From Rickettsiales bacterium (GTDB taxonomy: Bacteria; Pseudomonadota; Alphaproteobacteria; Rickettsiales; Anaplasmataceae): a stretch of 64,000 bases of DNA. The stretch lies in NCBI GenBank assembly GCA_965262395.1, contig OZ253531.1, positions 528,838-592,837 on the forward strand, written 5' to 3'. Position numbers and translations under genes: made by a program. Within the stretch, counting starts at the first letter, position 1. Every line of letters begins with the position of its first letter. The notes below the pieces were generated by a model that was not told where the DNA came from, did not search any database, and worked only from the letters and a program-made list of their open reading frames with translations. Positions 328 through 27,504 of this stretch are shown here, in pieces.

Positions 328-421
328 GTTGCTGCACTTTTCTGTGCAGTTTATATTCAAATTAGAAGAGAAGCTCATTCATAAATATAGTTTATGTTAA
401 ATTTGTTGGTATTGAAAGTCC

Positions 422-633: not shown

Positions 634-651
634 AAGGTATGAAATCACCCT

Positions 652-2475: not shown

Positions 2476-2663
2476 AGCATTAGTGTACGATTGAGTATCA
2501 CAATCTCAAATTGATACTCCTATTTGCTTAAACATTGATTAATCGTCATCGATCATTATTAAATTCTAGTAATCATTATACTGTGTGGGTTGACGATAAT
2601 TCAGACATATGATATCCTTAAGACAAGTATATATTATATCTTTAATGATTGAAGAGGGCAATA

Positions 2664-5029: not shown

Positions 5030-5680
5030 GTGGGCTTTTGTTGTATGGATGAGTATAATAAGCAAGTTTGGATAGTGACTTTTGCTGATTTGCTATCCTT
5101 AATGCTTACTTTTTTCATTTTATTATTCTCTTTTTCAGAATTGAATGAGAAAGATTGGTATAGCGTGGTGAGTAATACCAAATCTGAATTTGAGATAATC
5201 AAAAAATCTTCTAGTAACGCTAGTACTATAGAGGGAAGATATGGTATGGATCTGGGATATCTTGAAGCTGTGTTGAATAATAAATTTGTTAATGAATATG
5301 GTTATGTTCAGGTGAAAAATGAGGGTCATAGACTTATAGTATCTTTTCCTGGCGAGGTATTTAGATCAGAAAAGCAATTATATGATAATAAAGTTGATTC
5401 GGTGATGCACGTTATTGCCGATCTTGTTTCACAAATGACTAATAGTATTTATGTAATCAGTTACATAGATTCAGATCAGTCGCAGCTTGATCAGGAATGG
5501 GAAAATGTTCTTATGAATGCATTTGAAATATCCCAAGATATCAAAAAGCTTGGTTATGTAGAGGATATAAATATATTTGCAGGATCTTCTAATAGCAATG
5601 ATCCTAAAACAGGAATAGATTTAGTTATTAATGAGATATCAGATGATATACCTAATATGAACGAGGACGAAGGGTTGTAA
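5030..5680 (+). CDS. MotB/OmpA-like protein (MotB-type TM helix with conserved Asp, degenerate OmpA-like C-terminal domain)
   Basis: WIVTFADLLSLMLTFFILLF resembles the MotB WK(I/V)AYADFMTAMMAFFLV segment. RLIVSFPGEVFRSEKQLYDNKVDSVMHVIADLVSQMTNSIYVISYIDSD then WENVLMNAFEISQDIKKLGY...IFAGSS follows the OmpA_C layout, but the usual GHTD and RA residues are altered. Confidence 0.6.
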   Translation: MGFCCMDEYNKQVWIVTFADLLSLMLTFFILLFSFSELNEKDWYSVVSNTKSEFEIIKKSSSNASTIEGRYGMDLGYLEAVLNNKFVNEYGYVQVKNEGHRLIVSFPGEVFRSEKQLYDNKVDSVMHVIADLVSQMTNSIYVISYIDSDQSQLDQEWENVLMNAFEISQDIKKLGYVEDINIFAGSSNSNDPKTGIDLVINEISDDIPNMNEDEGL

Positions 5681-8457
5681 TGATTAGATTTATAATATTC
5701 ATCATATTTATATATTGCTCTTCCGATTATTGTAGTGCTTCAGAGGATAGCTATAGTATAGATAGCAATTCTTCAGGTGGGATTACTATTACCAAAGATG
5801 ATTTAACTGAAGATACGCCAGTTATTTCAGCTGAAGGGCAGAAAAAGTTGTTATTGGAAAAGAAAGAACAAGAAGCTTTGGCAAAGCTCAACGATAAAGA
5901 AAAAGCTATTATAAAAATGAAGAAATATAATAGTCAATTCTGGTTAAAATTTGATGATGTGAATGCAGTGAAGGCAGGAGTTTTCAAAAGAGAAGATGTA
6001 TTATGGATAGTATTTAATACGAAAAATACAGAAGATAATCTTGAAAAAAATGAACTTAGCCCACTTATTTCCGAACAGCAACACGATAAATATAAGATCA
6101 TACAAGTAGAGATTCCTGAGGGAGTATTTGCAGATCTGCAAATACTCCGTAATATGGTTGTTGTTAAATTTGTACCAAAAGAAGTTATACATAGTTATTA
6201 TAAGCGACCCAAGATTATTGAAGATAAATCTGAGGAGGAGGAAGATGATGATGATGTTGATAATGAGGTCGTTTTTATTGAAAGTATATCAAACCAGGAT
6301 CTTATTAAGGTTAATGATAGCGATATTGGTGATGAGTTGTGGTTGATACTGGATAATATTTCAGGCAGAGCATTCACTAAGACACATAAATATATTGATT
6401 TTCATATTCTACCAAGTTCTCTAGGCTTAGTAATCAAGCCGTTATCAAATGAATTGGAGATTCGTGATATAGCAGATAATACTGGTGTGGAGATTGCAAC
6501 TACAGAAGTATTTGACACAAAGGATAAAAATAAAGAGGCTGCAGAAAATCAGAAGGATGAAGCCAAAAAACTTATTTATGATATTGATTATTCACATCCA
6601 TTGTACAGATTTTCTGTCTGGAGTGGCAAAAAAAATTATAGCGAAAGCATTATAATGTTACGTAAAAATTTGCTTAAGGTGCATCCATATAAGCGAAGGA
6701 ATATTAGAATTAAGATTGCAGAATTATACCTGAGTCATGGCTTATATCAAGATGCACTAGGATATTTAGATTATATTAGATCAGGTGATAGGAAGGTTAT
6801 TAGCAGCGTTAGATATAGGTTGTTATATGCAGCAGCTTTGTACTTTGGTCGTAATTATTCACAGGCAAAGGATCTTTTTGATACCCTTGATGAAGAAGAA
6901 CTATCGGATGATCATAAATTAGAGCTGCAATTTTGGAAGGATGCCATTGATATTAAAATGGGTGATGATCAAAAAACATTGAAATATATAATTGGTTCTG
7001 AAAAATTCCTGAAAGAATATAATATGTTCCGTGAAGAATTTGCATTCATGGCTTTCGAACAAGCAATCAATAATGATCTTATAGACATAGCAAATAAGAT
7101 GAATAGCATAATTAGTGCCATGAAAACTCATAATGTAAATAGATTGCTATATAATAGAGCGATATTGCTGGAGAAAAAACAGAAATATAAAGATGCATTA
7201 AAGATTTATACCCTGTTATCAAAAAAGAGTGATGATAGAAAATATAGATCACTAGCTGTTTATCGTAAAACCAAATATCTGTATAGCATTCAAAAAGTTG
7301 ATAGAGTGGTAGCACTGAAACAATTGCTAGATATTAAATTTGTTTGGAGTTCTCCAGAGTTTGAGGTGCCTCTTTTGAAAGATATAGGTGATTTATATAT
7401 TGAAGAGAAAGAGTATTACAAGGGTATGTTGTCATATAAGGAGATGATAAAAAAGTATCCAGGTAATAAGTATATATTTGAAATTACCAAGAAGATGGGT
7501 GAATTATTTATAAAATTATTGATAGATGATAAAGATGACACTTTGTTGGATGATTATGGTGCAGCTCTAGTTTTTTATGAATTCAAAGAATTAATGCCCG
7601 TTGGAAGTATAGGTGTTAAGATAACCTTGAACTTTATAGATAGATTATTAGATCTTGATTTGGTTGATCAGGCAGAAAAATTACTAGAACATCTGGTTAA
7701 TTTTCGATTGAAGGATAAGCAACGTCAATTACAGCGTTTGAAGCTATCTGCTATTAAGATAAACAATCATAAATATAAAGCAGTGATTGATTTATTGAAT
7801 AAAGATACTGATTTTGATTTGCTTAGGGGAAGAGAGGTTAGGGAACGACGATACTTATTAACTGACGCATTGATACTTGAAGAAAAATATGAAGAGGCTT
7901 CAGAGGTTATAGGCAGCCTGAGTACAGTACGTGGTACAGATCTGAGAGGTGAGATATTCTGGAGATCAAAGGAATGGGATCAATTCATGACTCTTGCTGA
8001 AGGGGTATTAGAGTTCAGAAGTGATCCTAAGGCGCCCCTAACAGAGCGAGAGAAAATATATGTAATAAGATTGGCCTTGGCTTATGCATCCAAGGGGCAG
8101 CATGAGAAGATAAAGTCTCTTGAAGAAGCTTTTTCTACTTCTTTCCCAGAAGATAGTAAATATAGGAAGTCCTTGGTAGTATTTACAGAAATAACAGATG
8201 AGCTTACCTCTGAAGATTTGAATAAATCAGTAAATATAGACCGAATTAATGAGATCATAGAGGCTCATAAAGAGGATATTGTAGATGACTTTTCTAAAAT
8301 CAGTAAGAGTGAAGAAGATCAACTAAAGAAAGTAAAAGAGGAAAAGAGAACTCTACAGGAAGAAGAAGATAATAATGAAGCTAATGCAGAAAAGGAAGAA
8401 GATAATGAGAATGTGGAGAATGCAGCAGAAGATGAGGTCAAAGAAGAGGTGAAATAA
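5680..8457 (+). CDS. large exported TPR-like repeat protein (925 aa) with an acidic C-terminus
   Basis: Its ATG overlaps the upstream stop (TAATG). N-terminal signal-like MIRFIIFIIFIYCSSDYCSA. The central part has many Y/L/A helical-hairpin motifs (AELYLSHGLYQDALGYLDYI, AAALYFGRNYSQAKDLF, LLEKKQKYKDALKIYTLL, DLYIEEKEYYKGMLSYKEMIKKYP). E/D/N-rich tail. Confidence 0.7.
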   Translation: MIRFIIFIIFIYCSSDYCSASEDSYSIDSNSSGGITITKDDLTEDTPVISAEGQKKLLLEKKEQEALAKLNDKEKAIIKMKKYNSQFWLKFDDVNAVKAGVFKREDVLWIVFNTKNTEDNLEKNELSPLISEQQHDKYKIIQVEIPEGVFADLQILRNMVVVKFVPKEVIHSYYKRPKIIEDKSEEEEDDDDVDNEVVFIESISNQDLIKVNDSDIGDELWLILDNISGRAFTKTHKYIDFHILPSSLGLVIKPLSNELEIRDIADNTGVEIATTEVFDTKDKNKEAAENQKDEAKKLIYDIDYSHPLYRFSVWSGKKNYSESIIMLRKNLLKVHPYKRRNIRIKIAELYLSHGLYQDALGYLDYIRSGDRKVISSVRYRLLYAAALYFGRNYSQAKDLFDTLDEEELSDDHKLELQFWKDAIDIKMGDDQKTLKYIIGSEKFLKEYNMFREEFAFMAFEQAINNDLIDIANKMNSIISAMKTHNVNRLLYNRAILLEKKQKYKDALKIYTLLSKKSDDRKYRSLAVYRKTKYLYSIQKVDRVVALKQLLDIKFVWSSPEFEVPLLKDIGDLYIEEKEYYKGMLSYKEMIKKYPGNKYIFEITKKMGELFIKLLIDDKDDTLLDDYGAALVFYEFKELMPVGSIGVKITLNFIDRLLDLDLVDQAEKLLEHLVNFRLKDKQRQLQRLKLSAIKINNHKYKAVIDLLNKDTDFDLLRGREVRERRYLLTDALILEEKYEEASEVIGSLSTVRGTDLRGEIFWRSKEWDQFMTLAEGVLEFRSDPKAPLTEREKIYVIRLALAYASKGQHEKIKSLEEAFSTSFPEDSKYRKSLVVFTEITDELTSEDLNKSVNIDRINEIIEAHKEDIVDDFSKISKSEEDQLKKVKEEKRTLQEEEDNNEANAEKEEDNENVENAAEDEVKEEVK

Positions 8458-8872
8458 TAGTTGTATGAGTGGTTTGATGCTTGATGGTTTTGTTCATCAA
8501 GTGATATCCCATGCAGAAGAAGATAATGAGAATGTGGAGAATGCAGCAGAAGATGAGGTCAAAGAAGAGGTGAAATAATAGTTGTATGAGTGGTTCGATG
8601 CTTGATGTTTTTGTTCATCAAGTGATATCCCATGCAGAAGAAGATAATGAGAATGTGGAGAATGCAGCAGAAGATGAGGTCAAAGAAGAGGTGAAATAAT
8701 AGTTGTATGAGTGGTTTGATGCTTGATGGTTTTGTTCATCAAGTGATATCCCATGCAGAAGAAGATAATGAGAATGTGGAGAATGCAGCAGAAGATGAGG
8801 TCAAAGAAGAGGTGAAATAATAGTTGTATGAGTGGTTTGATGCTTGATGGTTTTGTTCATCAAATATCATTC
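8390..8872 (+). repeat. 4 x 121-bp tandem repeat; the first unit is the authentic gene 3' end plus stop plus a downstream hairpin
   Basis: gataatgagaatgtggag starts at 8401, 8522, 8643 and 8764. Each unit carries ...gaagaggtgaaataa and the inverted repeat cttgatg-N8-catcaag. Confidence 0.9.
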
Positions 8873-14348: not shown

Positions 14349-15812
14349 CTAATCTTCTCGGAATGCCTTATGAAAATTTCCAGCAATTGGAGTTAGTAAG
14401 TAGTTAATTATAGTTTTAGATTTTGTTGTAATATATATTTCGGCAGGCATTCCAGGATATAAATCTGTAGGTAGGTGTGCTGCTTCTAATTCTAATTTAG
14501 GTATATGTGCTTTGACAATATAGGATTGCTGTCCTTGATTATCTGTGATTGAATCAGCAGATATATAGATGACAATAGCGTTGATCATATTCACCCTTCT
14601 TGTGCTGTAAGCGGAAAGCCTAACCTTGGCTTTGAGACCAGTTACGCCATCAACATTAATTATATTTTCTTCTGTGTTTTTGGCTAATATTATTTCATCT
14701 ATGTCCTGTACAGAAACTTTTCCTTCGATTAACAAGCTATCATCATTAGGTATAATTTCCATAATTGGCACCCCAGGGGAAATTACTCCGCCAACTGTAT
14801 AGAAATTCAAATTGTTTATTACTCCATCTTGTGGCGAGATAATCACAGTTCTTTCTCTTATATCCCTTAGTTTTATTAAATTTTCTTTTACCTCTAGTAT
14901 TTGTGAGCTTACTTCCTTGAGTTCATTTATTACTTCATTGGAGAATTTATGTCTAATATTTAGGGTCTCAGTATTGATTTCATTGATGCGTTGATTAATT
15001 CTAGCGATTGTATATTTAGATTCACCGATTGAACCTGTAGCTCGTGCCAGATCTTTTTGTAAGGCCAAGACTCTTGGCTTTACAGCGCTACCTGATTTTA
15101 ATAGAATTTTTGTGGACTCTAATTCTTCTTCAATCAATTCCTTTTGTCGTGTTACAGCTGCAAACTGCTCCAATATTCCTTTTATCTCATCTTGAGACTG
15201 TTCTATGCGCTGTTTTGATATATCAGATTGACCGTCTGTGAGTTTTTGTCTGATTTCAAATGATCTCATTTCTTCATCAAGAATAGATTGTTTGTTATCA
15301 TCAGACAGTGCCTTCATCGCTAAATCATCAGAAAAAACAAGGGCTGCAAAATCATTTTTTTCTGCTAACAATCGCTCTTTGCGAGATTGTAGGTTGAATA
15401 ATTTATTTAATAATAGTGTTTCATTTGCAAAAGCTGAGGTATCTTGTAATTTAATTAATTCTTGTCCTGCCGTTACTTTGTCACCTTCTTTGGCCAATAT
15501 TTCTTTGATTATACCACCTTCAAAATGCTGTATTATTTTTTTCTTTGAAGATACCATTACCTGTGCAGGTGCAATGACTGCGCCTTCAATTGGTGCAAAA
15601 TATGACCATAAGCACAGTGTGCCAAAGAATAATAAGATGATTATCATTCCTGTGTTCAACGGAGATTGTGCTCGTTCTATAAGTTCAGAGGATGCGTATT
15701 CTGAGAAATAGTTTATTATTTTATCTAGAAACGTTATATTACTCTTCGTGCCACTGGCTGTCTTATCTTCTAGTATATTTTCTAATTTTACTTTTGAAGG
15801 TGGTAATGACAT
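14349..15812 (-). CDS. HlyD-family type I secretion membrane-fusion (periplasmic adaptor) protein
   Basis: N-terminal TM, then APIEGAVIAPAQVMVSSKKKIIQHFEGGIIKEILAKEGDKVTAGQELIKL (lipoyl/barrel motif), a long coiled coil, and C-terminal GMPAEIYITTKSKTIINYLLTPI. Confidence 0.85.
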   Translation of the reverse strand: MSLPPSKVKLENILEDKTASGTKSNITFLDKIINYFSEYASSELIERAQSPLNTGMIIILLFFGTLCLWSYFAPIEGAVIAPAQVMVSSKKKIIQHFEGGIIKEILAKEGDKVTAGQELIKLQDTSAFANETLLLNKLFNLQSRKERLLAEKNDFAALVFSDDLAMKALSDDNKQSILDEEMRSFEIRQKLTDGQSDISKQRIEQSQDEIKGILEQFAAVTRQKELIEEELESTKILLKSGSAVKPRVLALQKDLARATGSIGESKYTIARINQRINEINTETLNIRHKFSNEVINELKEVSSQILEVKENLIKLRDIRERTVIISPQDGVINNLNFYTVGGVISPGVPIMEIIPNDDSLLIEGKVSVQDIDEIILAKNTEENIINVDGVTGLKAKVRLSAYSTRRVNMINAIVIYISADSITDNQGQQSYIVKAHIPKLELEAAHLPTDLYPGMPAEIYITTKSKTIINYLLTPIAGNFHKAFRED

Positions 15813-16289
15813 GGAATTTTATAAAACAGACAATTATATAATTACTGCAATGATACGTTTACAGTGGTGTAAAAGTCAAATAAAAATTAATGATGCTTAT
15901 TGCGACCTTAGATTTATCCTTGATCACTGCATAAATACACTATTTCTAGTAGATATAAAATGGATATAAGTATTTAAGTATATTCAATTTCCTACTATAT
16001 AAAATTTTGATATCTAGTATGGCTAAATTGCTGTAGTATCTAGAACCGTTACTTTTTCTATGTTTCCAGAGCAGGATCTATAAATCCAGCACTTAATGAT
16101 CGTTGCGTTTTCTATGTTTTTAGATAAGAAACCTATAATAAATTAGAAGAATTCACATGTGCGCATAGAAAATAAGCATCAAATTTTTCCTTAATAACCT
16201 GTCCTTTGGCAGACTTATCCTTGATAATCTTACTTAGAAATTTAAGCCGCATATATATTTCATAAATAACATATTAAAACAATTGAAGT

Positions 16290-16600
16290 ACTTTTCATTG
16301 ACGCTCCTACACATTAATGAGAGCATTTTTTGCTGGATGACATATTTGGTATAAATTAAGCAAATTCAAGAAAATGTTCTTTCCTATTGACGGGCTTACT
16401 GCATTAATGTGAGTAGTATTATTGATGCTATATCTTGCTTAATGTAAGAGAAATTTTTTCCTCTTGATGGGGCTGACTGCATTAATGTGAGCATTGTTAT
16501 TAGTTGTCATATCTGAAATCTTCTTATTAATTCATCGCTTATATTAAGAAGAATATTTCTCTTATTGACGGGGTCACTGCATTAATGATCTAATCATTTC
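16290..16600. repeat. 4 degenerate units (spacing 78-100 bp) with core (a/c)ttga(c/t)g(g)g..c..ac(t/a)(g/c)cattaatg(t/a)gag
   Basis: Cores at about 16297, 16386, 16463 and 16564, each preceded by a gaaaatgttctttcc-like T-rich tract. Confidence 0.55.
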
Positions 16601-16884
16601 TAGATACTATATATAGTATGAATCAATGAAATAAAGATAGATGCTTGATTAAATATAGTAATCATACAATATATATTGTATAGATGCTTCATCTGGTATG
16701 TAGGTATCGTTTTATTTTAACCAATGAGGTAAGTGTTATTTTGATGAAATAATTAAGCCACCAAGTTAGCGACAACTAACATGGGTGACCAAAAACGTAC
16801 TGATCTAATATTAGAAAAACCATGAACGTTCGCAATCGTAGTTTATCTAATATGGATATATATTATGCAAATAAGAACAAGAGT

Positions 16885-17058
16885 AATAGAATGGATGAAG
16901 TTTATAATAAGATCCATGATGAAAGGGATGAATTTTGTAATAAAATCTATGATAAAAGGGATAAATTTCCTAATAGAATGGATGAAATTTATAATAAGAT
17001 CCATGATGAAAGGGATGAATTTTGTAATAGAATCTATAATAAAACCCACAATCAAATG
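16885..17058. repeat. 2 x 87-bp tandem repeat
   Basis: aatagaatggatgaa(g/a)tttataataagatccatgatgaaagggatgaattttgtaata starts at 16885 and 16972. Three overlapping ORFs (two on +, one on -) are open across it. Confidence 0.7.
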
Positions 17059-17117
17059 GATAAAAAATAATCCAGAATTTATAAGTAGACTGCGCATAAT
17101 ACTGTCAAATCTAGGAG

Positions 17118-17690
17118 ATCGATGGCCGATTATGCAGCAATTATAATGTGAGCCGCTAGGAAGTTGCTGACCGATTATGCAGCCGATACTGAAAATTATA
17201 ATGTTAGTGTTGGGAAGTTGATGACCAATTATGCAGCAATTATAATGTGAGCCGCTAGGAGATGCTGACCGGATTATGCAGCCGATACTGAAAATTATAA
17301 TGTTAGTGTTGGGAGGTTGATGACCAATTATGCAGCCGATACTGAAAATTATAATGTTAGTGTTGGGAGGTTGATGACCGGATTATGCAGCCGATAATAG
17401 AATTTTATGGGAGGTTGCTGACCGATTATGCAGCCGATACTGAAAATTATAATGTTAGTGTTGGGAAGTTGATGACCGATTATGCAGCCGATACTGAAAA
17501 TTATAATGTTAGTGTTGGGAAGTTGCTGACCGGATTATGCAGCAGATAATAGAATTTATGATTTTAGTGTTGGGAGTTGCTGACCGGATTATGCAGCCGA
17601 TAATAGAATTTATGATTTTAGTGTTGGGAGGTTGATGACCAATTATGCAGCCGATACTGAAAATTATAATGTTAGTGTTGGGAAATTGAT
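17118..17690. repeat. mosaic tandem repeat, about 10 units of 45-57 bp in three interleaved variants
   Basis: All units share the core gac(c/cg)(a/g)attatgcagc. The variants continue with cgatactgaaaattataatgttagtgttggga(a/g)gttgat, with aattataatgtgagccgctagga, or with cgataatagaatttat. Confidence 0.85.
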
Positions 17691-17830
17691 GGATAATTAT
17701 CAGGTTAATGTTATCACTTTATTGAAAGTTATTAAATGGATATGACCGGTAGATCTCCTGCAGTATAAGACAATGTTAATGTTTTTATTATAAAGTTCAA
17801 GCAATGTATTAATCCTTATATGTTTGTATT

Positions 17831-18280
17831 ATGAAGTTTAGGTGGTTGCCTATTGCACTATTTATGTTGCTAGGCTTTAATCATGAGTTATATGCTGAAT
17901 GCAGTTGTAACTCTGTCGAAAAAAGTGTTGAAGAGGCGGTGCGAGGTAGTAACCTGATTGTAAGTGGAAGAGTAGTCAATATAGTACATGCAAATAATGT
18001 TGATTATGTGGTGAAGCTACATATCTATAACACCTGGCTAGCTACAGACGATATAGTAGAAGAAAATGGCCAACAATATGTTCATTTGATCTCTACTTTA
18101 AATAAAGAAGAATGTGGTTCTCAGATGAAACTTGGACATAATTATCTCATATATTCTAATTATGTTAATGGACAATTAGTTGTTAGTAAGTGTAGCAATT
18201 CTAAGAAGTTGGAAAAAGTTCCTAGTAGTGAGTTTATTGCTTTAGATGATATAGTAGGTCAGGACGAAGAAGAAGAATAA
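17831..18280 (+). CDS. secreted TIMP/NTR-like OB-fold protein (149 aa)
   Basis: Signal peptide MKFRWLPIALFMLLGFNHELYA, then ECSC (Cys24, Cys26) ...EEAVRGSNLIVSGRVVNIV..., and near the C-terminus YLIYSNYVNGQLVVSKCS. This is the pattern of TIMP N-terminal/netrin-like modules (CxC, beta strands, ...C). Confidence 0.55.
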   Translation: MKFRWLPIALFMLLGFNHELYAECSCNSVEKSVEEAVRGSNLIVSGRVVNIVHANNVDYVVKLHIYNTWLATDDIVEENGQQYVHLISTLNKEECGSQMKLGHNYLIYSNYVNGQLVVSKCSNSKKLEKVPSSEFIALDDIVGQDEEEE

Positions 18281-18650
18281 TCAAATTCATAAACAATTGA
18301 TTGTTAGTAAGTGTAGCAATTCTAAGAAATTAGAAAAAGTTCCTAGTAGTGAGTTTATTGCTTTAGATGATATAGTAGGTCAGGACGAAGAAGAAGAATA
18401 ATCAAATTCATAAACAATTGATTGTTAGTAAGTGTAGCAATTCTAAGAAGTTGGAAAAAGTTCCTAGTAGTGAGTTTATTGCTTTAGATGATATAGTAGG
18501 TCAGGACGAAGAAGAAGAATAAACAGGTTCATAAACAATTGATTGTTAGTAAATGCAGTAATTCTAAGAAGTTGGAAAAAGTTCCTAGTAGTGAGTTTAT
18601 TGCTTTAGATGATATAGTAGGTCAGGACGAAGAAGAATAATAAACAGGTT
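18172..18650 (+). repeat. 4 x 121-bp tandem repeat; the first unit is the authentic 3' end (36 codons plus stop) of CDS 17831..18280
   Basis: tgttagtaagtgtagcaattctaagaa starts at 18181, 18302, 18423 and 18544. Every copy ends gaagaagaa(gaa)taa. Confidence 0.9.
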
Positions 18651-18656
18651 CATGCA

Positions 18657-19388
18657 TTGAAGATTAACAATGATATAGGTATCTTATTAGGTTATCGCAG
18701 ATATGGTGAAAGTTTCTTCATATTATCAATTCTGACGAAAGATCATGGTTTATATAAAGGCTTATTTAGGCCTAGTAAGAAACATAATGTTTTATTGCAA
18801 ATTGGTAATGTTTTATCTGTGAAGTGGCAAGCTAGATTGCAAGATAGCTTGGGTAGGTTCAGTTGTGAATTAGTTAGTAGTTATTTTGATTATTGTTTTG
18901 ATGATAATCTGAAGCTTCTTGTTTTAAAGTCATTCTCGTCTTTATTATTGTCATGTCTTCCAGAGCGAGAAATTCATAAAAATATTTACAAGTCGTGCAT
19001 GAAATTCCTATTGTCATTAAAAGGGCAGGGATGGCAATCAAAATACATATATTTTGAGCTGCAGTTATTATCTGATCTTGGTTATGGCTTAACGATTGAC
19101 AAATGTGCAGTGAGCGGCAGTAAAAATGTGGATGATCTTTCATATATTTCTCCAAAAACTGGTTGTGCTGTAGTGCAAGAGGTGGGTATTCAGTATAAGG
19201 ATCGCTTAATTAATTATCCTGCAGCTTTCAGATCGGTTGTTGTAGATGATGATGTATGCCTATCGCACGTTGATGTTGTAGAGGCATTATGTGTTACGGG
19301 TTTCTTTTTAGAGAAGAATGTTTGGTGTTCCTCTAAGAGGCGAATACCAGAGGATCGGAGTATTCTTATACAAAAATTAAATAAATAA
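18657..19388 (+). CDS. recO: DNA repair protein RecO
   Basis: 243 aa with the typical RecO N-terminal OB region (GILLGYRRYGESFFILSILTKDHGLYKGLFR) and the expected length. TTG start 7 nt after the last repeat unit. Confidence 0.75.
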   Translation: MKINNDIGILLGYRRYGESFFILSILTKDHGLYKGLFRPSKKHNVLLQIGNVLSVKWQARLQDSLGRFSCELVSSYFDYCFDDNLKLLVLKSFSSLLLSCLPEREIHKNIYKSCMKFLLSLKGQGWQSKYIYFELQLLSDLGYGLTIDKCAVSGSKNVDDLSYISPKTGCAVVQEVGIQYKDRLINYPAAFRSVVVDDDVCLSHVDVVEALCVTGFFLEKNVWCSSKRRIPEDRSILIQKLNK

Positions 19389-19392
19389 TAGT

Positions 19393-19447
19393 GAGTATTA
19401 GAGTATTAGAGTATTAGAGTATTAGAGTATTAGAGTATTAGAGTATT
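19393..19447. repeat. octanucleotide microsatellite (gagtatta) x ~7
   Basis: Read directly, immediately after the recO stop. Confidence 0.9.
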
Positions 19448-19590
19448 TCCTGACTTATATTCCATGCGGAGACTATTCGCAGATACAACTGTAGATTGTC
19501 TAATATAGCCTACTATACAATCTGTTTAATGTATTATTTACTAATATTCAATATATAGATAAAGATCAGGATCTTGTAGAGAAATTACAT

Positions 19591-20478
19591 ATGTATGAAG
19601 CTGTTACCTCCATGCAGCCAGGTGATGCAATTATCGCTGTATGCCAAGATAATTATAAGAAAATAATATTTATTGAGGGATTTGATGAAAATATAGAAAG
19701 ATTGTTGCACTATAATGAAGATGACATGATAGGTCGCAACGTTAATATTATATTTGGCAGCAAGGTTACAGAGGCCATTGAGAGTTATTTAGAATATAAT
19801 GACTCTACTCATAGTCTTGATGTCGTACTTAATAAAATTAGAGATTTTAGTTTAATTAATCTTGATGGAGAGCATGTTGATGTACACGCTAAGACGCACA
19901 ATGTGGCTACTAGTGACCGAGGGTTGCATTTTGAAATAGTTATAAGGCCCATTACTATTGAAGAACGATTAGATGATTTCAAAGAACATGTGCCTGTGGC
20001 CAAATCTAATCAAGTTCATGAAGATCTTGGTATTTTAAATGAAGAGGCTGTAAGAAAAGAGTTAAAAGTCATGATAGATTTTTCTGATCATAATATGGCA
20101 GATATGGTTATTGGATTGATTTCTATTGAACATGTCAAGATTTTTTCTAATGTTAAGAAGCTTTTAATTCCAATCATAGAAGTACTAGAAAAAAAATTGG
20201 AAAAACGAGACATTATTGGGTATTATGGACATGGTGAGATATTATTTGCAATAATAGATTGTAATGCAAATAAGGCAATCAATGTCATTGATTTGCTTCA
20301 TCGTAGTATTAATAATAGGTTGGCTAATTTTAGCTCTTCTTTGGGTGAAAGGGTTTCTTCTTCAATAAGTTATATGAATTTTTCTGGCTTGAGTTTGGAA
20401 GAAACATTTGCAAAATTGGAAAACGGAACATCAGAGGCCAAATCTTTGGGTGGTAATCAGATATGCAATCGCAGTTAG
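19591..20478 (+). CDS. PAS-like sensor plus degenerate GGDEF domain protein (GGDEF replaced by GHGEI)
   Basis: N-terminal DMIGRNVNIIFG is PAS-like. The C-terminal layout HEDLGILNEEAVRKEL / VIGLISIEHVKIFSN / RDIIGYYGHGEILFAIIDC...AINVIDLLHRSI parallels D.LTGL.NRR / IDIDHFK.IND / D.vaRyGGDEFavll...A...aeri. Confidence 0.55.
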   Translation: MYEAVTSMQPGDAIIAVCQDNYKKIIFIEGFDENIERLLHYNEDDMIGRNVNIIFGSKVTEAIESYLEYNDSTHSLDVVLNKIRDFSLINLDGEHVDVHAKTHNVATSDRGLHFEIVIRPITIEERLDDFKEHVPVAKSNQVHEDLGILNEEAVRKELKVMIDFSDHNMADMVIGLISIEHVKIFSNVKKLLIPIIEVLEKKLEKRDIIGYYGHGEILFAIIDCNANKAINVIDLLHRSINNRLANFSSSLGERVSSSISYMNFSGLSLEETFAKLENGTSEAKSLGGNQICNRS

Positions 20479-20672
20479 TTTTGCATTGGAAAACGGAATA
20501 TCAGAGGCCAAGGCTTTGGGTGGTAATCAGATATGCAATCGCAGTTAGTTTTGCATTGGAAAACGGAATATCAGAGGCCAAGGCTTTGGGTGGTAATCAG
20601 ATATGCAATCGCAGTTAGCTTTGCATTGGAAAATGGAATATCAGAGGCCAAGGCTTTGGGTGGTAATCAGAG
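20410..20672 (+). repeat. about 3.8 x 70-bp tandem repeat of the gene's last ~23 codons plus stop
   Basis: ttggaaaacgg starts at 20416, 20486, 20556 and 20626. Each unit ends atatgcaatcgcagttag. Confidence 0.9.
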
Positions 20673-20688
20673 CTAGTTCTGCCTCATA

Positions 20689-21573
20689 TTAGTCAAAATA
20701 TCTATTAATTATACTTATACCTCTTTTTATTAGGGGTGGTGCCTGTTCGAACTTTGCGGAATCTGCTACTGCATGTTTAATAATACTTGTTGCCGATACT
20801 TCATTGCTATCAGGATGGCTGTCAGATATAATTTTGTTGTAGATAGACATAGCATCTTTGGCTAAATTTACATTCTTCTTAATGTTCATGAATTTTGGCA
20901 TTTTAACCACTCTTTGCAGTGAGTTTAATTCATATATGGCGTGATTCTGCAATATCAGTTTAATTATTTTATCATGTATGTCGCTAATTAAGGACTTTTC
21001 GATCAAGTTATACTTGTTCATAATGGATAATATTTCTTTTATTATTCCATTCATATCCTGTTTAACTACTAATGTAGTTATAGTAATGCAATGCTTGTTC
21101 AAGCTAATGCTATTCTTGCTAAATACAGAATCATTCTGTAATTCGCTAATAAATTTTTTCTTTTCGGTAGAATTGTCATTAGATAGCTCTAATGAAAGTG
21201 GCAATAATGAAATCTTGTGATCTGCAAACATTATTTCACATGTTGGTTGTCCATTATAATAGGTGAGTAAGGCATTCTCATGTTGAAGGATTGTGCATGC
21301 TTCTAGCAATATTTTGCAAATCAAGGTGCTAGATACATTGAGCAATTCTAATTGCCGGCAAATTGCCTTTATATCATAGTAAACTAATTCCTCATCTGTA
21401 TAGCATCTTATACTATCATTGGAATAGTCCAGGGAAATATCTTTGTTTGTGATAGCCTTGCTTATTTTATGCTCATGTACGGTTGTAAATAACCTTCTCC
21501 ACTCGCTTAAGTTGTAATCATTATCAATTATGAGTAATATTTCTTTTGAGTTTAATTTGAAATCTCGGATCAT
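20689..21573 (-). CDS. hypothetical protein (294 aa)
   Basis: Long ORF with a non-repetitive, helical-looking sequence. Divergent from the repressor gene at 21791. No motif recognised. Confidence 0.6.
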   Translation of the reverse strand: MIRDFKLNSKEILLIIDNDYNLSEWRRLFTTVHEHKISKAITNKDISLDYSNDSIRCYTDEELVYYDIKAICRQLELLNVSSTLICKILLEACTILQHENALLTYYNGQPTCEIMFADHKISLLPLSLELSNDNSTEKKKFISELQNDSVFSKNSISLNKHCITITTLVVKQDMNGIIKEILSIMNKYNLIEKSLISDIHDKIIKLILQNHAIYELNSLQRVVKMPKFMNIKKNVNLAKDAMSIYNKIISDSHPDSNEVSATSIIKHAVADSAKFEQAPPLIKRGISIINRYFD

Positions 21574-21790
21574 AGCGGTGTCCTAGTAAGTGCGCAGTAG
21601 GATAATGATATAGTAAAAAAGTTAATAAATAATATATGTTTTGGTAATTAATTATGAGCTTGCATAAATAAATATATTGTTAATGCATATTTAAGGTTGC
21701 ATGAAATTATCTTGTATGCTACTTAAAGTTGTGCTATTCCTAAGAACAAGGAATGCTCATGTATAATAATGGGAAGTATAGGAGTATTTT

Positions 21791-22426
21791 ATGATTAAAA
21801 CAGATAATAAAATCATGATTGAGCGTATTAAAAGCCTGATGGATACAAAGGGAATGAATGCAAGGAAGCTGGCAGAAAAGGCAACTGTTGGTAAGTCATT
21901 TGTGTACGATATCTTGAGTGGCAAGTCTACAAATCCTACGTCAGCAAGGTTATTAAAGATTTGTAATGCTTTGCATGTTCCAATTTCTTATTTAGTTAAA
22001 GACCAAGATCTTGGACCATATGATCATTTTGATTGTGATAATTATGTTCCAATATCTCAGTTGAATGAAAGTAATAACTGCGGCAATACTCCACCACAGT
22101 TATTTTTGCACGTTAACATGATGCATGCCTTCTTTAAGGATAATGAAAATTTATCTTTATATAAAGTTGCTTGTGATTCAATGGAGCCAACGCTTAATCA
22201 TGGCGACACAGTATTAATTGATACAGCTATAGTTACTCCGTATCCTTCTGGTGTGTTTGTTATAAAGGACTCAGTAGGGTGCTCTGTGAAGAGAATAGAA
22301 TACTTGGTGAATAATAAGGATAAAATACGTATTATTTCAGATAATAGTAAATACAAAGAGTATGAATGTTCCATAGATGAAATTCAAATCATTGGTAAAA
22401 TAGTATGGTTTTCAAGGAATTTTTAG
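21791..22426 (+). CDS. XRE-family HTH plus S24 (LexA/CI-like) peptidase repressor
   Basis: HTH: MNARKLAEKATVGKSFVYDILSGKSTNPTSARLLKICNALHVPISYLV. S24: CDSMEPTLNHGDTVLIDT (catalytic Ser) and SVKRIEY (Lys). Confidence 0.8.
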   Translation: MIKTDNKIMIERIKSLMDTKGMNARKLAEKATVGKSFVYDILSGKSTNPTSARLLKICNALHVPISYLVKDQDLGPYDHFDCDNYVPISQLNESNNCGNTPPQLFLHVNMMHAFFKDNENLSLYKVACDSMEPTLNHGDTVLIDTAIVTPYPSGVFVIKDSVGCSVKRIEYLVNNKDKIRIISDNSKYKEYECSIDEIQIIGKIVWFSRNF

Positions 22427-22593
22427 TGCTGTTTGCATGCAAACTTATCAAGTTTCTTAAGTTCAGTTTTTTGAGTTAAGTTTCTTAAGTTCAGTTTCTT
22501 GAGTTGTATTCTTGTATGTAGATATATATTGCATTTGCATTATATATCTGATAAATATGTCCAATAATTATATTGGATGATGGAGAGTTTGAT

Positions 22594-23016
22594 ATGGCTG
22601 AAGGATCTGGACGTAGAGTTGACGATAATGAGTATAATTATGACGTGCATCATCGATATGCCGATTATTATGAATATGGTGATAGTCCTTATTTCTATGA
22701 GCAGGGTGGTAATAGCTTCCATCAGCTTGAGGCTGACGATCCAATAGCTGCATTTTATCAAGCAGCAGAACAGCTATATAAGTGTAGGTTGTTTGTAGCT
22801 CAAGGACGGGGGTGGGATGCTCGCGGTTTTAAGGAAGGGTATTATAAGATATTCAACAAGTTAGTTGCAGGTAAGGTTGATGGAGTTAAATATAGACCTG
22901 AAGTCTTGCAAGAGCATATGGAAGAATTGGTGGAGCAAAAAATCAGAGGAGCAGAGGCGTCGCTGCCAGGCTTGAACGAACATGCTGGGATGTTTCGTCC
23001 GCTGAAAGATAAGTAA
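22594..23016 (+). CDS. paralog 1 of a tandem three-gene family of ~140-150-aa Tyr/Asp-rich proteins (ORF opens at 22573; ATG 22594 matches the paralog starts)
   Basis: Shares Y(D/E)YGDSxxFYExGGNxFHQLxxxDPIAAFY and ...EHxEELVEQKIR...RP(L/M)KD(K/R) with the two downstream genes. Confidence 0.75.
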   Translation: MAEGSGRRVDDNEYNYDVHHRYADYYEYGDSPYFYEQGGNSFHQLEADDPIAAFYQAAEQLYKCRLFVAQGRGWDARGFKEGYYKIFNKLVAGKVDGVKYRPEVLQEHMEELVEQKIRGAEASLPGLNEHAGMFRPLKDK

Positions 23017-23078
23017 ATTATACGCTTGCCTGGCGGCAATTAAGGTGAATCGTTAAATAATTAATATGGAGTTTTAAT

Positions 23079-23534
23079 ATGGCTGATGGTGGATATACAT
23101 ATGATCAATACGGCAATAAATATGATAAAGACGGCAATAAATATGATAGGGATGGATTTCGATCTATAGATCGTTGGTATAATGGATACTATGATTATGG
23201 TGATTCTCGTCGTTTTTATGAGGAGGGTGGAAATGACTTTCATCAGCTTGACCCTGATGACCCAATAGCTGCATTTTATAAGGCAGCAGAGCTGTTACAT
23301 GACTCTAGATTAGCTGGATGTCGAGGAAAGATGAAACAGAGCCAAGAGAAGACTGGTAAATATCACGATATATTTCAAAGATTAGTTGATGGTAAATTTG
23401 GTGGCACTACATATAGACATGAAGCTTTACATGAGCATATAGAGCAATTGGTAGAGCAGAAAATTAGAGAAGGAGAGAGTTCATTTTTTCCAACCAATTA
23501 TGAGGGTATGTATCGTCCGCTGAAAGATAAGTAA
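23079..23534 (+). CDS. paralog 2 of the tandem family
   Basis: MADGGYTYDQYGNKYDKDGNKYDRDG... with the same conserved core. A 62-bp upstream spacer is nearly identical to the one before paralog 3. Confidence 0.8.
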   Translation: MADGGYTYDQYGNKYDKDGNKYDRDGFRSIDRWYNGYYDYGDSRRFYEEGGNDFHQLDPDDPIAAFYKAAELLHDSRLAGCRGKMKQSQEKTGKYHDIFQRLVDGKFGGTTYRHEALHEHIEQLVEQKIREGESSFFPTNYEGMYRPLKDK

Positions 23535-23596
23535 ATTATATGCTTGTCTGGCGGCAATTAAGGTGAATCGTTGAATAATTAATATGGAGTTTTAAT

Positions 23597-24034
23597 ATGG
23601 CTGATGGTGGATATAGATATGATAAAGACGGTAATGCATATGATGAGAAAGGATCTCGATCTGTAGATAGTTGGTATGATGAATACTATGAACATGGTGA
23701 TTCTCGTCGTTTTTATGAAAAGGGTGGAAATGACTTTCATCAGCTTGAGCCTAATGATCCAATAGCTGCATTTTATAGTACAGCAAAACAGCTATATAAA
23801 TTTAGATTGTTTCTTGCTCAAGGACAGAAGTATAATGCTGGCGAGTGTAGGACGCTTTATGCTAGGATGTTCAATAAATTAGTTGCAGGTGAGGTCGATG
23901 GAGTTAAATATAGGCGTGAGGCTTTACAAGAGCATATGGAAGAATTGGTGGAGCAAAAAATTAGAGAAGAAGAGGCGTCGCTGCCAGGCTTGAACGAGCA
24001 TGCTGGGATGTATCGTCCTATGAAGGATAGGTAA
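23597..24034 (+). CDS. paralog 3 of the tandem family (mosaic: N-terminus like paralog 2, C-terminal half like paralog 1)
   Basis: MADGGYRYDKDGNAYDEKG... and a C-terminus KLVAGEVDGVKYRREALQEHMEELVEQKIREEEASLPGLNEHAGMYRPMKDR. Confidence 0.8.
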   Translation: MADGGYRYDKDGNAYDEKGSRSVDSWYDEYYEHGDSRRFYEKGGNDFHQLEPNDPIAAFYSTAKQLYKFRLFLAQGQKYNAGECRTLYARMFNKLVAGEVDGVKYRREALQEHMEELVEQKIREEEASLPGLNEHAGMYRPMKDR

Positions 24035-24197: not shown

Positions 24198-25430
24198 ATG
24201 AATTCTACCAATGGTAATCAAGGCTTTCCTCCTCCCCCTCTTCCTTACACTGTGCCAAGTCTTTTTTCTCAGGATGATTTCACTCCTATCCCTGACAGTG
24301 AAAGGGTGTTTATGAGAGATGATGGTAGTTTTGTGCAAAGTAATTTTACCCAAGGTGGTGGTGGTATCGCTAATCCTGGTGTTGTCAACTCTGGTGTTTT
24401 CAATTCTGGTGTTATCTATCCTAACAATACTTATGAACCTCATAAGACAGTAGTGCTTACTCGCCCTTTGCCTGCTGCGGCACCTGTTAATAAGGCAGCT
24501 GGAACTTATTATTATGGTAAGAGTCCTTTTAGTCAGGGTGATTTTGCTCCTATTCCTGATACTGAGAAAGTGTTCATGCGAGATGACGGTAGTTTCATCG
24601 GGGATCCATTGGTGAGAATGGGTTCTAGTGATAGTTCAAGCAGTGATGGCTCAGGTTCGTATAGCATGGGTGGTAATCCTGCGTACATGGGCAGTGGTGC
24701 CTCGTATAGCATGGGTGGTAATCCTGCGCACATGAGCGGTGGCGGCTCAGATTCGTATAGCATGGGTGGTAATCCCGCACACATGAGCGGTGGCGGCTCG
24801 TATAATATGGGTGGTAATCCTGCGCACATGAGCGGTGGCGGCTCGTATAATGTGGGTGGTAATCCTGCGCACATGAGCGGTGGCGGTTCAGATTCGTATA
24901 GTATGGGTGGTAATCCCGCACACCTGAGTGGTGGCGGTTCAGATTCGTATAGTATGGGTGGTAATCCTGCGCACATGGGCAGTGGCGGCGGCTCATATGA
25001 TGTGGGTGGTAATCCCGCACACATGAGTGGCGGCGGCTCATATGATGTGGGTGGTAATCCTGCGCACATGGGCAGTGGCGGCGGCTCATATGATGTGGGT
25101 GGTAATCCCGCACACATGAGTGGCGGCGGCTCGTATGATGTGGGTGGTAATCCGGCACACATGAGCGGTGGCGGCTCGTATAATATGGGTGGTAATCCGG
25201 CGTACATGGGCAGTGGCGGTTCATATGATGTGGGTGGTAATCCTGCGTACATGGGCAGTGGCGGCTCATATGATGTGGGTGGTAATCCGGCACACATGAG
25301 CGGCGGCGGTTCAGGTTCGTATTATAGTGACAGTAGCATGAGTGGTAGTTCTGATAATGCAAGCAATGGTTCTTCAGGTTCTGATGGAAGTCCCCTAGGA
25401 GATCCTTACAATAGTGGTGGCTCTTATTAA
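24198..25430 (+). CDS. Gly/Ser-rich tandem-repeat protein (about 17 x GGNPA(H/Y)M(S)GGGS(DS)Y(D/N/S)(V/M)), candidate secreted effector
   Basis: 410 aa. The N-terminus holds two copies of FSQ(D/G)DF(T/A)PIPD(S/T)E(R/K)VFMRDDGSF. The central repeats are 45/48/51 bp. The tail is Ser/Gly/Asn-rich. Confidence 0.75.
   Translation: MNSTNGNQGFPPPPLPYTVPSLFSQDDFTPIPDSERVFMRDDGSFVQSNFTQGGGGIANPGVVNSGVFNSGVIYPNNTYEPHKTVVLTRPLPAAAPVNKAAGTYYYGKSPFSQGDFAPIPDTEKVFMRDDGSFIGDPLVRMGSSDSSSSDGSGSYSMGGNPAYMGSGASYSMGGNPAHMSGGGSDSYSMGGNPAHMSGGGSYNMGGNPAHMSGGGSYNVGGNPAHMSGGGSDSYSMGGNPAHLSGGGSDSYSMGGNPAHMGSGGGSYDVGGNPAHMSGGGSYDVGGNPAHMGSGGGSYDVGGNPAHMSGGGSYDVGGNPAHMSGGGSYNMGGNPAYMGSGGSYDVGGNPAYMGSGGSYDVGGNPAHMSGGGSGSYYSDSSMSGSSDNASNGSSGSDGSPLGDPYNSGGSY
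24655..25320. repeat. intragenic 45/48/51-bp tandem repeats
   Basis: ggtggtaatcc(t/c/g)gc(g/a)(c/t)acatg(a/g)gc... recurs about 17 times. It generates 254- and 277-aa antisense ORFs. Confidence 0.9.
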
Positions 25431-25487: not shown

Positions 25488-25856
25488 CTGAGAATGTTTT
25501 TTATACATGCGTGAGAGATGTGGTTTGAGTTTGTTAGAGAATTTCTATTAAATAAAGACCGCGATATCTAGTGGTGTTGTAGTGGTGTTTTATGCTTATT
25601 TACATATTAATGGCGTGTCTGTTCATATGTAATTATTGTCTTACTAATTGTTGCGCAATCAGTGTTTATTCAGAGTGGTTCATCTGAAACAATAGACTTG
25701 CCATCAAGACGAAGCTACCTTGTGAAGTATGTGATTTTGATTTGTGTTTTTCTTGGTTTGGTGTTATAGTGGGGGGCATTAGTTGTGCCTAGGATTTTAT
25801 TGAATTTGGCACTGCAAATGCTTATTTTTTCTTTGATTATTTATGAGGATGTTGTT

Positions 25857-26267
25857 ATGAATTCATACGGTTATGGCTCACATGCTAGGCCTTCTAGTCT
25901 TGATTTGCATAGAAGGGCAAATATTCGATCAGCTGCTCAGAATTTGGTTCAGTATCAAAATGCAGCTGCTACTAATCCGACACAGGCGCAGGCATATTAT
26001 GGTATGTACAGGGATACGCGTGGTGCACTTCGTTCTGGTTCTAACACTGGACACCAGAGAGGCCGTGTTGACCAAAGAATTTCTCACGTGGCAAATTCGA
26101 TTAATCGCAGTAATAATGCAACACGTCTTGCTAACAGCGTATATCCTAATCGACTAGGGGCGGCTCAACATAATGTTAGATATCCTGTTGGTACAGCTAA
26201 TGTATCCAGTGGTTATAATTTTGGTCCAAACAACCAAGTGATTTCAACAAGTACATATGGTCTGTAA
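25857..26267 (+). CDS. hypothetical low-complexity (N/Q/Y/G/R-rich) protein, paralog of 26392..26748 (ORF opens at GTG 25785; ATG 25857 follows aggatg)
   Basis: AAQNLVQYQNAAATNPTQAQAYYGMYRD aligns with AAQHLISYQNMANSNPTEAQKHYRVYNQ in the next gene. Confidence 0.6.
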   Translation: MNSYGYGSHARPSSLDLHRRANIRSAAQNLVQYQNAAATNPTQAQAYYGMYRDTRGALRSGSNTGHQRGRVDQRISHVANSINRSNNATRLANSVYPNRLGAAQHNVRYPVGTANVSSGYNFGPNNQVISTSTYGL

Positions 26268-26391: not shown

Positions 26392-26748
26392 ATGCATACA
26401 TATTCTCAAGGATATTCTTATCCGGAACAGTCTATAGCAACGGCAGCACAGCATTTAATAAGTTATCAAAATATGGCTAATTCAAATCCTACTGAGGCTC
26501 AGAAGCATTATAGAGTATATAATCAAATTCGTCTGGATTTACATCACTCTGGAGTGCCAGACATAGATTATAATATTAATAAGTACGTTAATACTTATTC
26601 AAGTCAGACTCCTTATCCTAATGCAGGTGTGGTTCCGCAAGGTGGCTCTGGTTATGGTTTTCCAGATCCAAGCAGAGTTCAGCAAAATGGTGGTATGCCA
26701 ATCACTACTTATGACCCTAATGGAGAAGACGCTACAACTGCATTTTAG
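26392..26748 (+). CDS. hypothetical low-complexity protein, paralog of 25857..26267
   Basis: Shared 28-aa motif (see previous feature). The ATG is preceded by ttggagattaaatt. Confidence 0.6.
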   Translation: MHTYSQGYSYPEQSIATAAQHLISYQNMANSNPTEAQKHYRVYNQIRLDLHHSGVPDIDYNINKYVNTYSSQTPYPNAGVVPQGGSGYGFPDPSRVQQNGGMPITTYDPNGEDATTAF

Positions 26749-26867
26749 AGTATTGTCTGTGATGATGAATTCAAATATTTATTTGAGTTCAATAGGAGAA
26801 AGTTTAGATTCTATTTAGATTTTCTTCTATTATTTTTTTTATTTATTCGGATTTTTTTTGTGCCTAT

Positions 26868-26960
26868 GTTCCCTGTTCCCTGTTCCCTGTTCCCTGTTCC
26901 CTGTTCCCTGTTCCCTGTTCCCTGTTCCCTGTTCCCTGTTCCCTGTTCCCTGATTCCCTG
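26868..26960. repeat. heptanucleotide microsatellite (gttccct) x 12 plus one variant unit
   Basis: Read directly. Confidence 0.95.
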
Positions 26961-27210: not shown

Positions 27211-27429
27211 GTGTTAGTGGAGTGTTTGACAGTGTTTGAGTGAGTGTTTGAGTGTTTGAGTGTTTGAGTGTTTGAGTGTTTGAGTGTTTGAGTGTTTGAG
27301 TTTGAGTGTTTGAGTGTTTGAGTGTTTGAGTGTTTGAGTGTTTGAGTGTTTGAGTGTTTGAGTGTTTGAGTGTTTGAGTGTTTGAGTGTTTGAGTGTTTG
27401 AGTGTTTGAGTGTTTGAGTGTTTGAGTGT
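27209..27429. repeat. octanucleotide microsatellite (gagtgttt) x ~24 abutting the tRNA 5' end
   Basis: Read directly. One 6-nt truncated unit lies near 27300, and the last unit runs into tRNA position +1. Confidence 0.95.
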
Positions 27430-27504
27430 TCCTCGGTAGCTCAGTGGTAGAGCAGTTGACTGTTAATCAATTGGTCGTTGGTTCAAGTCCATCCCGGGGA
27501 GCCA
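27430..27504 (+). tRNA. tRNA-Asn (anticodon GUU), CCA encoded
   Basis: Hand-folded cloverleaf. Acceptor tcctcgg/ccgggga, D arm gctc-agtggta-gagc, anticodon stem gttga/tcaat with loop ctGTTaa, T arm gttgg-ttcaagt-ccatc (one U-U mismatch), discriminator g, then cca. Confidence 0.85.

Follow-up and report, generated by a model that had tools for sequence, protein, structure and literature searches.

The window analyzed here, a stretch of 64,000 nucleotides (nt) from contig OZ253531.1 of a Rickettsiales bacterium, carries between positions 22,594 and 24,034 an array of three consecutive genes that encode small, hydrophilic, Tyr-rich paralogs. The array very likely arose by tandem duplication and was reshaped by recombination between its own copies. 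Taken as a whole, the statement that these are real genes of a genome-specific family, duplicated and recombined, and that their products play a binding or effector-like role has in our opinion about an even chance of being right.

Mosaic structure of the three-gene array

Three co-oriented open reading frames (ORFs) were found on the + strand at exactly the positions given by an earlier reading of this DNA (the original prediction), and they encode paralogs of 140, 151 and 145 amino acids (aa). The array and the tracts discussed below are as follows.

22594..23016, + strand: copy 1, 140 aa; unique head A, body alpha, tail 1 (from the ORF and the alignment)
23017..23078, + strand: spacer 1, 62 nt; holds the GGAG ribosome-binding site of copy 2
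23079..23534, + strand: copy 2, 151 aa; head B, divergent body delta, tail 1
23535..23596, + strand: spacer 2, 62 nt; holds the GGAG ribosome-binding site of copy 3
23597..24034, + strand: copy 3, 145 aa; chimera with head B (copy-2-like), body alpha (copy-1-like) and its own tail 2
22741..22758, also 23262-23279 and 23759-23776, + strand: CCAATAGCTGCATTTTAT, coding for PIAAFY, 18 nt identical in all copies (from the repeat comparison)
22982..23126, + strand: junction tract (copy 1 tail, spacer, copy 2 head), 91% identical to 23500-23644

The array has a period of 518 nt and each unit includes one whole gene. A GGAG motif precedes the ATG of all three copies by 7-8 nt. We placed the start of copy 1 at the ATG at 22594, which has GGAG 8 nt upstream and is for that reason more likely than an in-frame TTG at 22573, and a public protein collection also lists this gene as a 140-aa product (P0003). 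The protein alignment of the three copies contains 64 invariant columns, which include YY(E/D)(Y/H)GDSxxFYExGGNxFHQLxxxDPIAAFY, EHxExLVEQKIR and the C-terminal RP(L/M)KD(K/R), and identity to copy 1 is 52% for copy 2 and 67% for copy 3. The ORFs and this alignment confirm that the locus is a tandem array of three mosaic paralogs with shared motifs, as had been proposed. All indels among the copies are in frame, and a 21-nt internal tandem repeat in copy 2 (23095-23148, 2.6 copies in Tandem Repeats Finder) gives rise to extra GNKYDKD heptads in its N-terminal tail. No further copy was found elsewhere in the window, and the flanks of the array hold no convincing remnant of one.

In a sliding-window comparison of the codon alignment, nucleotide identity between copies 2 and 3 is 0.80-0.95 over codons 1-65 and 0.33-0.60 over codons 71-105; between copies 1 and 3 the trend is the opposite, from 0.48-0.71 in the first 50 alignment codons to 0.82-0.93 in codons 96-150. 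A 3SEQ-style test with copy 3 as the child gave 121 informative sites and a maximum descent of 52, a value that no permutation out of 100,000 reached (p<=1e-5). The informative sites are copy-2-like up to alignment codon 62 and almost all copy-1-like from codon 69, and the head/body exchange point maps onto CCAATAGCTGCATTTTAT. Copy 3 is thus a chimera, with the N-terminus of copy 2 and the C-terminal half of copy 1, as the original prediction had it. Synonymous divergence (dS) shifts roughly 10-fold at the breakpoint, rising between copies 2 and 3 from 0.06-0.14 in the head to 0.94-1.2 in the body and falling between copies 1 and 3 from 0.8-1.7 in the head to about 0.4 in the body. Because synonymous divergence jumps across the breakpoint, the mosaic reflects exchange and not uneven selection, and the significant breakpoint together with the dS jump bears out the intra-array recombination or gene conversion that had been put forward. 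In generic terms, the paralogs stand head to tail, their mosaic ancestry has statistical support and synonymous divergence is discordant between one part of the gene and another.

The 62-nt spacers do differ at exactly 3 positions, as had been counted, and 27 nt around the ribosome-binding site and start codon in the spacer 2 region form an identical repeat. The original prediction had set these near-identical spacers against the divergent coding parts; the likeness of the spacers stands, but it is not specific to them, the adjoining gene tail and head being equally close. The junction tract at 22982-23126 and its counterpart at 23500-23644 (copy 2 tail, spacer, copy 3 head) are the first 145 nt of a tract of ~290 nt in all, which takes in one gene's tail, the spacer and the 5' half of the gene that follows, and to judge from its sequence identity it is the most recently duplicated or converted segment. 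The near-identity of the spacers is therefore no sign of a constrained spacer, because they are part of this recent tract and dS in the adjacent coding part (0.06-0.14) is just as low. The spacer RNA has no significant fold (z = +1.4 for spacer 1).

The three copies combine their modules as A/alpha/1, B/delta/1 and B/alpha/2. One unequal crossover in a two-gene ancestor accounts for the heads, tails and spacers. As the whole history, this event was rejected: it predicts a copy-1-like body in copy 2, where a dS of about 1.2 is observed, and at least two events are needed because a lone crossover fails on that body. The array very probably originated by tandem duplication, a process that is rampant in this genome, and was then reshuffled by two or more homologous exchanges, through unequal crossing-over or gene conversion: one took place at the invariant 18-nt stretch that codes for PIAAFY, another at the 3' tail. 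The locus is a clean, small example of how tandem duplication and exchange at a short invariant stretch lead to mosaic genes in a reduced, repeat-rich alphaproteobacterial genome.

An orphan family and the constraint on it

The three copies matched nothing in Pfam (E<=0.1), NCBIfam, PHROGs or PADLOC (E<=0.1), and the best hit in a sequence-profile search of the PDB had E = 0.83. Foldseek, run twice against the PDB and once against BFVD, returned generic helical bundles alone (best E about 1). A search of 5.8 billion proteins recovered the three window proteins alone, each from one contig of 1,687,069 bp, while the family profile had no match in genome, metagenome or viral contigs and an exact look-up of the copies' proteins gave no record. 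The family is thus an orphan confined to this genome, and as a protein family it is new: some 15 billion predicted proteins include no relative of it.

When 1.84 billion representatives were scanned in full with HMMER, the one protein recovered besides the family itself was P0004, at E = 1.3e-30. P0004 is a 1017-aa protein made of 13 near-identical Cys-rich repeats, whose six-cysteine pattern we take to be of the peritrophin-A/CBM14 chitin-binding type. Each repeat adds 3-12 bits, so that the E-value is a sum over the 13 repeats; a single repeat alone reaches 15.7 bits, that is E = 1.4e3 for the 1.84-billion library. We rejected P0004 as a relative and regard it as a repeat-inflated chance match, since a lone repeat is not significant and the paralogs lack its cysteines.

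This match, the Y-x-Y-D-x-x-G-N strings in the N-terminal tail and a low-confidence AlphaFold hint of a beta-hairpin there are what could make the copies degenerate relatives of CBM14 (through the motif) or of YD/Rhs repeats (through the tail), an origin that is effectively refuted and to which we give next to no probability. The RHS_repeat and CBM_14 profiles of Pfam do not match any of the three paralogs at E<=0.1. CBM14 is defined by six disulphide-forming cysteines. The paralogs share with the P0004 repeats a local string, FYxxGGNxxHxxD...YxAA, but carry one Cys each, none of it inside the YY..DPIAAFY motif. As for YD/Rhs repeats, the array proteins do carry a short Y-x-Y-D-x-x-G-(N/R) string; however, there are one to three heptads in the N-terminal ~25-40 residues, ahead of the conserved motif, and not dozens of ~20-residue repeats, there is no Rhs core or DPxGL-type motif, and the remainder is predicted to be helical. 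The faint YD/RHS likeness once noted for the N-terminal strings is dropped on the same grounds, the heptad spacing being unlike that of a ~20-residue YD repeat.

The three ORFs are in all likelihood real protein-coding genes, because they are intact in DNA of 34% GC, their ribosome-binding sites are kept, their indels are in frame and the ratio of non-synonymous to synonymous divergence (dN/dS) is 0.40-0.63 overall and 0.12 between copies 1 and 3 in the region of predicted helix 3 (see below). By our own estimate, three consecutive ORFs of at least 140 codons are very improbable by chance in sequence of this composition. One could instead see in the array by-products of tandem duplication with little or no function: ORFs, either young or in decay, that have stayed open by chance. 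Such an origin would suit an orphan family found in this genome alone, a window of which 10% is tandem repeat with duplicated gene tails included, a fairly high overall dN/dS and the absence of the array from the one syntenic relative, but it is improbable in view of the fact that all ORFs are intact despite a body dS of about 1, in a genome where stops arise easily, and in view of the in-frame indels, the kept ribosome-binding sites, the constraint on helix 3 and the 64 invariant columns.

The genes appear to be overall under relaxed purifying selection, judged by the codon comparison. In codons 76-100 dN/dS is 0.6-1.3, with tiny counts, and it exceeds 1 in the N-terminal tail of copies 2 and 3 (1 synonymous versus 13 non-synonymous changes). 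These segments reflect relaxed constraint or possible diversification and are not proven cases of positive selection. The description of the array as a diversifying family is accordingly not established, values above 1 being confined to short segments with tiny counts.

Predicted structure and possible role of the proteins

The proteins have an isoelectric point (pI) of 5.4-5.7, a grand average of hydropathy (GRAVY) of -0.85 to -1.28, 9-10% Tyr and 9-11% Gly. Their N-terminal half is strongly acidic (pI 4.2-4.5, with 8-11 Tyr in 55-67 residues), their C-terminal half is mildly basic (pI about 9) and the last 20 residues of each have about zero net charge. Two AlphaFold2 runs, with copy 1 and then copy 3 as the target, gave the same three helices with a block-mean predicted local distance difference test score (pLDDT) of about 70-88, placed at residues 50-69, 73-91 and 102-123 of copy 1. 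The N-terminal 45-50 residues, invariant motif included, were modelled with low confidence. The fold predicted for the family, which had been suggested as a check on the original prediction, is therefore a three-helix bundle behind a low-confidence, acidic, Tyr-rich N-terminal half.

Four parts can be told apart along the protein. A variable Tyr/Asp/Gly/Asn tail at the N-terminus, with one to three Y-x-Y-D-x-x-G-N-like heptads, is probably disordered. It is followed by the invariant aromatic/glycine motif YYxYGDSxxFYExGGNxFHQLxxxDPIAAFY. The modelled three-helix bundle comes third, and in it the last stretch of helix 1 and the greater part of helix 2, which correspond to the variable codons 76-100, would vary while helix 3 (EHxExLVEQKIR) would be conserved. 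The protein ends with the conserved RP(L/M)KD(K/R).

A lineage-specific binding or effector-like role is our best guess, though a tentative one. The proteins would then be binding or adaptor proteins of a host-associated alphaproteobacterium, possibly exported, in which the conserved motif and helix 3 would serve as the scaffold and the N-terminal tail and the helix 1-2 surface as the variable part that contacts the partner. If the proteins are exported or bind the host, they become candidate lineage-specific effectors with built-in variation.

Several points weigh against our reading of the array. From their sequences, no activity, partner or location can be tied to the proteins, and reading these sequences, hydrophilic by their GRAVY, we saw no signal peptide, transmembrane segment or recognisable secretion signal. 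The structure models come from a 3-sequence alignment, their mean pLDDT is 60-61 and the most conserved motif is poorly modelled. The selection estimates likewise rest on three sequences, and counts are tiny where dN/dS exceeds 1. The three genes are probably transcribed as one unit, on the sole ground that no terminator-like site was found on the + strand between or after the copies. Nor can a single unequal crossover account for the pattern of the array.

Immunity genes of polymorphic toxins typically form tandem, recombining, fast-diverging paralog arrays. Small, soluble, predicted-helical tandem paralogs with module exchange could thus be immunity (antidote) proteins or orphan cassettes of such a system, the more so as a giant ORF of 6446 aa lies 7.5 kb downstream and a gene for an HlyD-type adaptor of type I secretion (T1SS) lies 6.8 kb upstream. 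We consider this very unlikely. There is no adjacent toxin gene, the upstream neighbor being a transcriptional regulator with a helix-turn-helix (HTH) and a peptidase S24 domain; the giant ORF shows a SecA_DEAD-like domain alone, with no toxin, Rhs or pretoxin domain, and has three other ORFs and a tRNA gene between itself and the array; and no immunity family was matched in Pfam, NCBIfam or PADLOC. The array resembles polymorphic-toxin immunity arrays (Zhang et al. 2012) in its small, soluble, fast-diverging and recombining tandem paralogs and differs from them in lacking the toxin neighbor and the family match.

The binding or effector-like role may also be taken further, to an exported, host-directed family whose head, body and tail modules are actively recombined by a repeat-generating process and so vary the binding surface. 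The array would then be a soluble analogue of msp2/p44 variation, possibly switched on by the LexA-like regulator upstream; as a joint claim, this is quite unlikely. Anaplasma msp2/p44 and Ehrlichia p28/omp-1 are tandem families of the Anaplasmataceae that are reshaped by gene conversion. Like them, the array consists of clustered lineage-specific paralogs in a small alphaproteobacterial genome, with conserved flanks around variable segments and segments exchanged between copies at conserved stretches. However, those families encode beta-barrel outer-membrane proteins with signal peptides and rely on an expression site and on numerous copies or pseudogene donors, whereas the array has three complete genes with soluble, predicted-helical products, no sequence similarity to them and no donor/expression-site arrangement.

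The upstream regulator, the neighborhood and tandem repeats

The region upstream of the array contains the following features.

21791..22426, + strand: gene for an XRE-type HTH and peptidase S24 (LexA/CI-like) regulator (Pfam Peptidase_S24, 4e-13; HTH_3)
22427..22593, + strand: upstream region of the array, putative operator/promoter region
22431-22444: perfect 14-nt palindrome GTTTGCATGCAAAC, upstream of copy 1
22450-22505: 14/28-nt tandem repeat, upstream of copy 1
22520-22549: 30-nt imperfect palindrome AGATATATATTGCA-TT-TGCATTATATATCT, with 14-nt arms that are 93% complementary

The regulator gene lies directly upstream of the array in the same orientation and ends 167 nt before copy 1. 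Its product scores 208 bits against NCBIfam NF048000 ('ECH_1013 family', known from Ehrlichia), below the cut-off of 300, and matched canonical LexA (TIGR00498) at just E = 0.07. It keeps the DSM(E)P and VKR motifs, which are the Ser and Lys motifs of self-cleaving LexA/CI proteins. Its best named homologues are from Ehrlichia and Neoehrlichia (42-43% identity), and a metagenome protein on an Ehrlichia-like contig is 45% identical. By its sequence, the protein may be the LexA-like damage sensor of the lineage. It could possibly control the array, a link that is unproven. A prophage repressor or immunity module was considered and rejected, homologues of the regulator being found among housekeeping genes in several contexts with no phage genes nearby; the regulator itself was the sole PHROGs match near the array.

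Both palindromes contain TTGCAT half-sites, which occur 4 times in the 167 nt versus 70 times per 64 kb (1.1 per kb; 0.18 expected), with a hand-calculated Poisson p of about 4e-5 for a motif picked post hoc. TTGCAT is also present twice upstream of the regulator gene itself. The array upstream region folds as RNA with z = -2.2, and no sigma-70-like promoter was found on the + strand upstream of copy 1, where matches were fewer than in shuffles.

From these observations one could argue that the array encodes hydrophilin-type proteins inducible by stress or DNA damage, which the HTH-S24 regulator would repress through the palindromes and release upon its RecA-stimulated self-cleavage. The co-oriented regulator gene 167 nt away, the Ser and Lys motifs of its S24 domain, the enriched half-sites common to the two palindromes and found again 5' of the regulator gene, and the Gly-rich, extremely hydrophilic array proteins are all consistent with this. 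Nevertheless, we judge it unlikely: the regulator gene belongs to the alphaproteobacterial core and turns up amid housekeeping genes in contexts unrelated to one another, other genes follow it in the syntenic relative described below, its adjacency to the array is met once, the operator motif was chosen post hoc, and hydrophilin is a physico-chemical label and not a homology class.

The sole syntenic relative found is a distant one, represented by a metagenome contig that we call L009 (ENA ERZ26051807 ctg87719), whose positions 137-4106 correspond to 17831-22426 of the window, with gene order kept at 25-39% identity. The shared order comprises a small secreted protein with a weak TIMP match, recO (39%), a PAS-GGDEF gene, a minus-strand orphan (25%) and the HTH-S24 regulator (39%). 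In L009 the array is absent, and the place right after the regulator is taken by serine-recombinase and integrase-like genes. The array starts at this synteny break, so that the region 3' of the regulator is variable or prone to insertion. Within the syntenic block, the PAS-GGDEF gene (19591-20478) encodes a degenerate PAS and GGDEF-like protein with matches below curated cut-offs; a tandem array with a 70-nt unit and 3.7 copies is made up of its last 21 codons and stop, and its L009 counterpart was called as two genes.

Downstream, the array is followed by further Gly/Ser/Asn/Tyr-rich orphan genes and then by tRNA-Asn (27430-27504). The gene directly after the array (24198-25430) encodes a 410-aa orphan with 24% Gly, 17% Ser, a pI of 4.55 and no family match. 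It contains about 14 copies of the 15-aa unit SYxMGGNPAHMSGGG, a PPPPLPY string at its N-terminus and a duplicated FSQ(D/G)DF(T/A)PIPD(S/T)E(R/K)VFMRDDGSF motif. A second orphan paralog pair follows (25785-26267 and 26392-26748; 160 and 118 aa), whose members are 52% identical over a common stretch of 33 residues (AAQxLxxYQNxAxxNPTxAQ) and carry tails rich in Tyr, Gly, Asn and Ser. The giant ORF (31596-50936) has as its lone domain the SecA DEAD-like match (E = 2.6e-17, residues ~5410-5640), with no Pfam match in the remainder, and its 3' end lies in a 100-nt tandem repeat of 4.6 copies. On the other side of the array, the HlyD-family T1SS adaptor gene (14349-15812, 343 bits) has no adjoining ABC-transporter ORF; the 2-kb stretch upstream of it (15813-17830) holds just short ORFs and tandem repeats, and the locus may be a decayed or split T1SS operon. 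Rfam matches in the whole window are limited to tRNA-Asn and a 6S RNA gene (62397-62553, 60 bits, above the gathering score).

The organism that carries the array appears from its protein sequences to be a very divergent alphaproteobacterium: no other protein in the collection exceeds 48% identity to its RNase E, for which the best matches come from assorted alphaproteobacteria. The 1.69-Mb contig, a window GC of 34%, many window proteins without a domain, the divergent RNase E and a regulator nearest to that of Ehrlichia suggest a host-associated lifestyle.

According to Tandem Repeats Finder, 10.4% of the window belongs to tandem arrays, 28 distinct ones in all; their periods are 50-190 nt and their identity is 90-98%. 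At least five begin inside the 3' end of an ORF and pass its stop, so that gene tail and stop are repeated 3-8 times. L009 has almost no tandem repeats. Such rampant tandem repetition probably explains the origin of the three-gene array. The Ehrlichia ruminantium genome reportedly contains actively variable tandem duplications. Its repeats range in size from tens to hundreds of bases; intergenic DNA and the 3' ends of genes contain many of them, and they can create or truncate genes. The genome studied here is likewise a small, AT-rich alphaproteobacterial genome packed with tandem repeats, with a regulator whose best named homologues are in Ehrlichia; it differs in that the organism is not an Ehrlichia, as its RNase E and its 1.69-Mb contig indicate, in that the 518-nt unit includes a whole gene and in that duplication of the copies dates far back (dS up to about 1). 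In genomes of this kind, orphan paralog arrays shaped by gene conversion are nothing out of the ordinary; what stands out more is the spread of tandem repeats over about 10% of the window, several of them duplicating gene 3' ends. The main repeats are listed below.

8395-8863, 18172-18643, 20415-20671, 30598-31034 and 50891-51351: tandem arrays (Tandem Repeats Finder)
4340-4971, 17139-17691, 53277-53742 and 56721-57450: further tandem arrays (Tandem Repeats Finder)
19393-19447: array of (GAGTATTA) x7, just after recO
26867-26960: perfect microsatellite (TGTTCCC) x13
27241-27430: perfect microsatellite (TGAGTGTT) x24, which reaches the first base of tRNA-Asn

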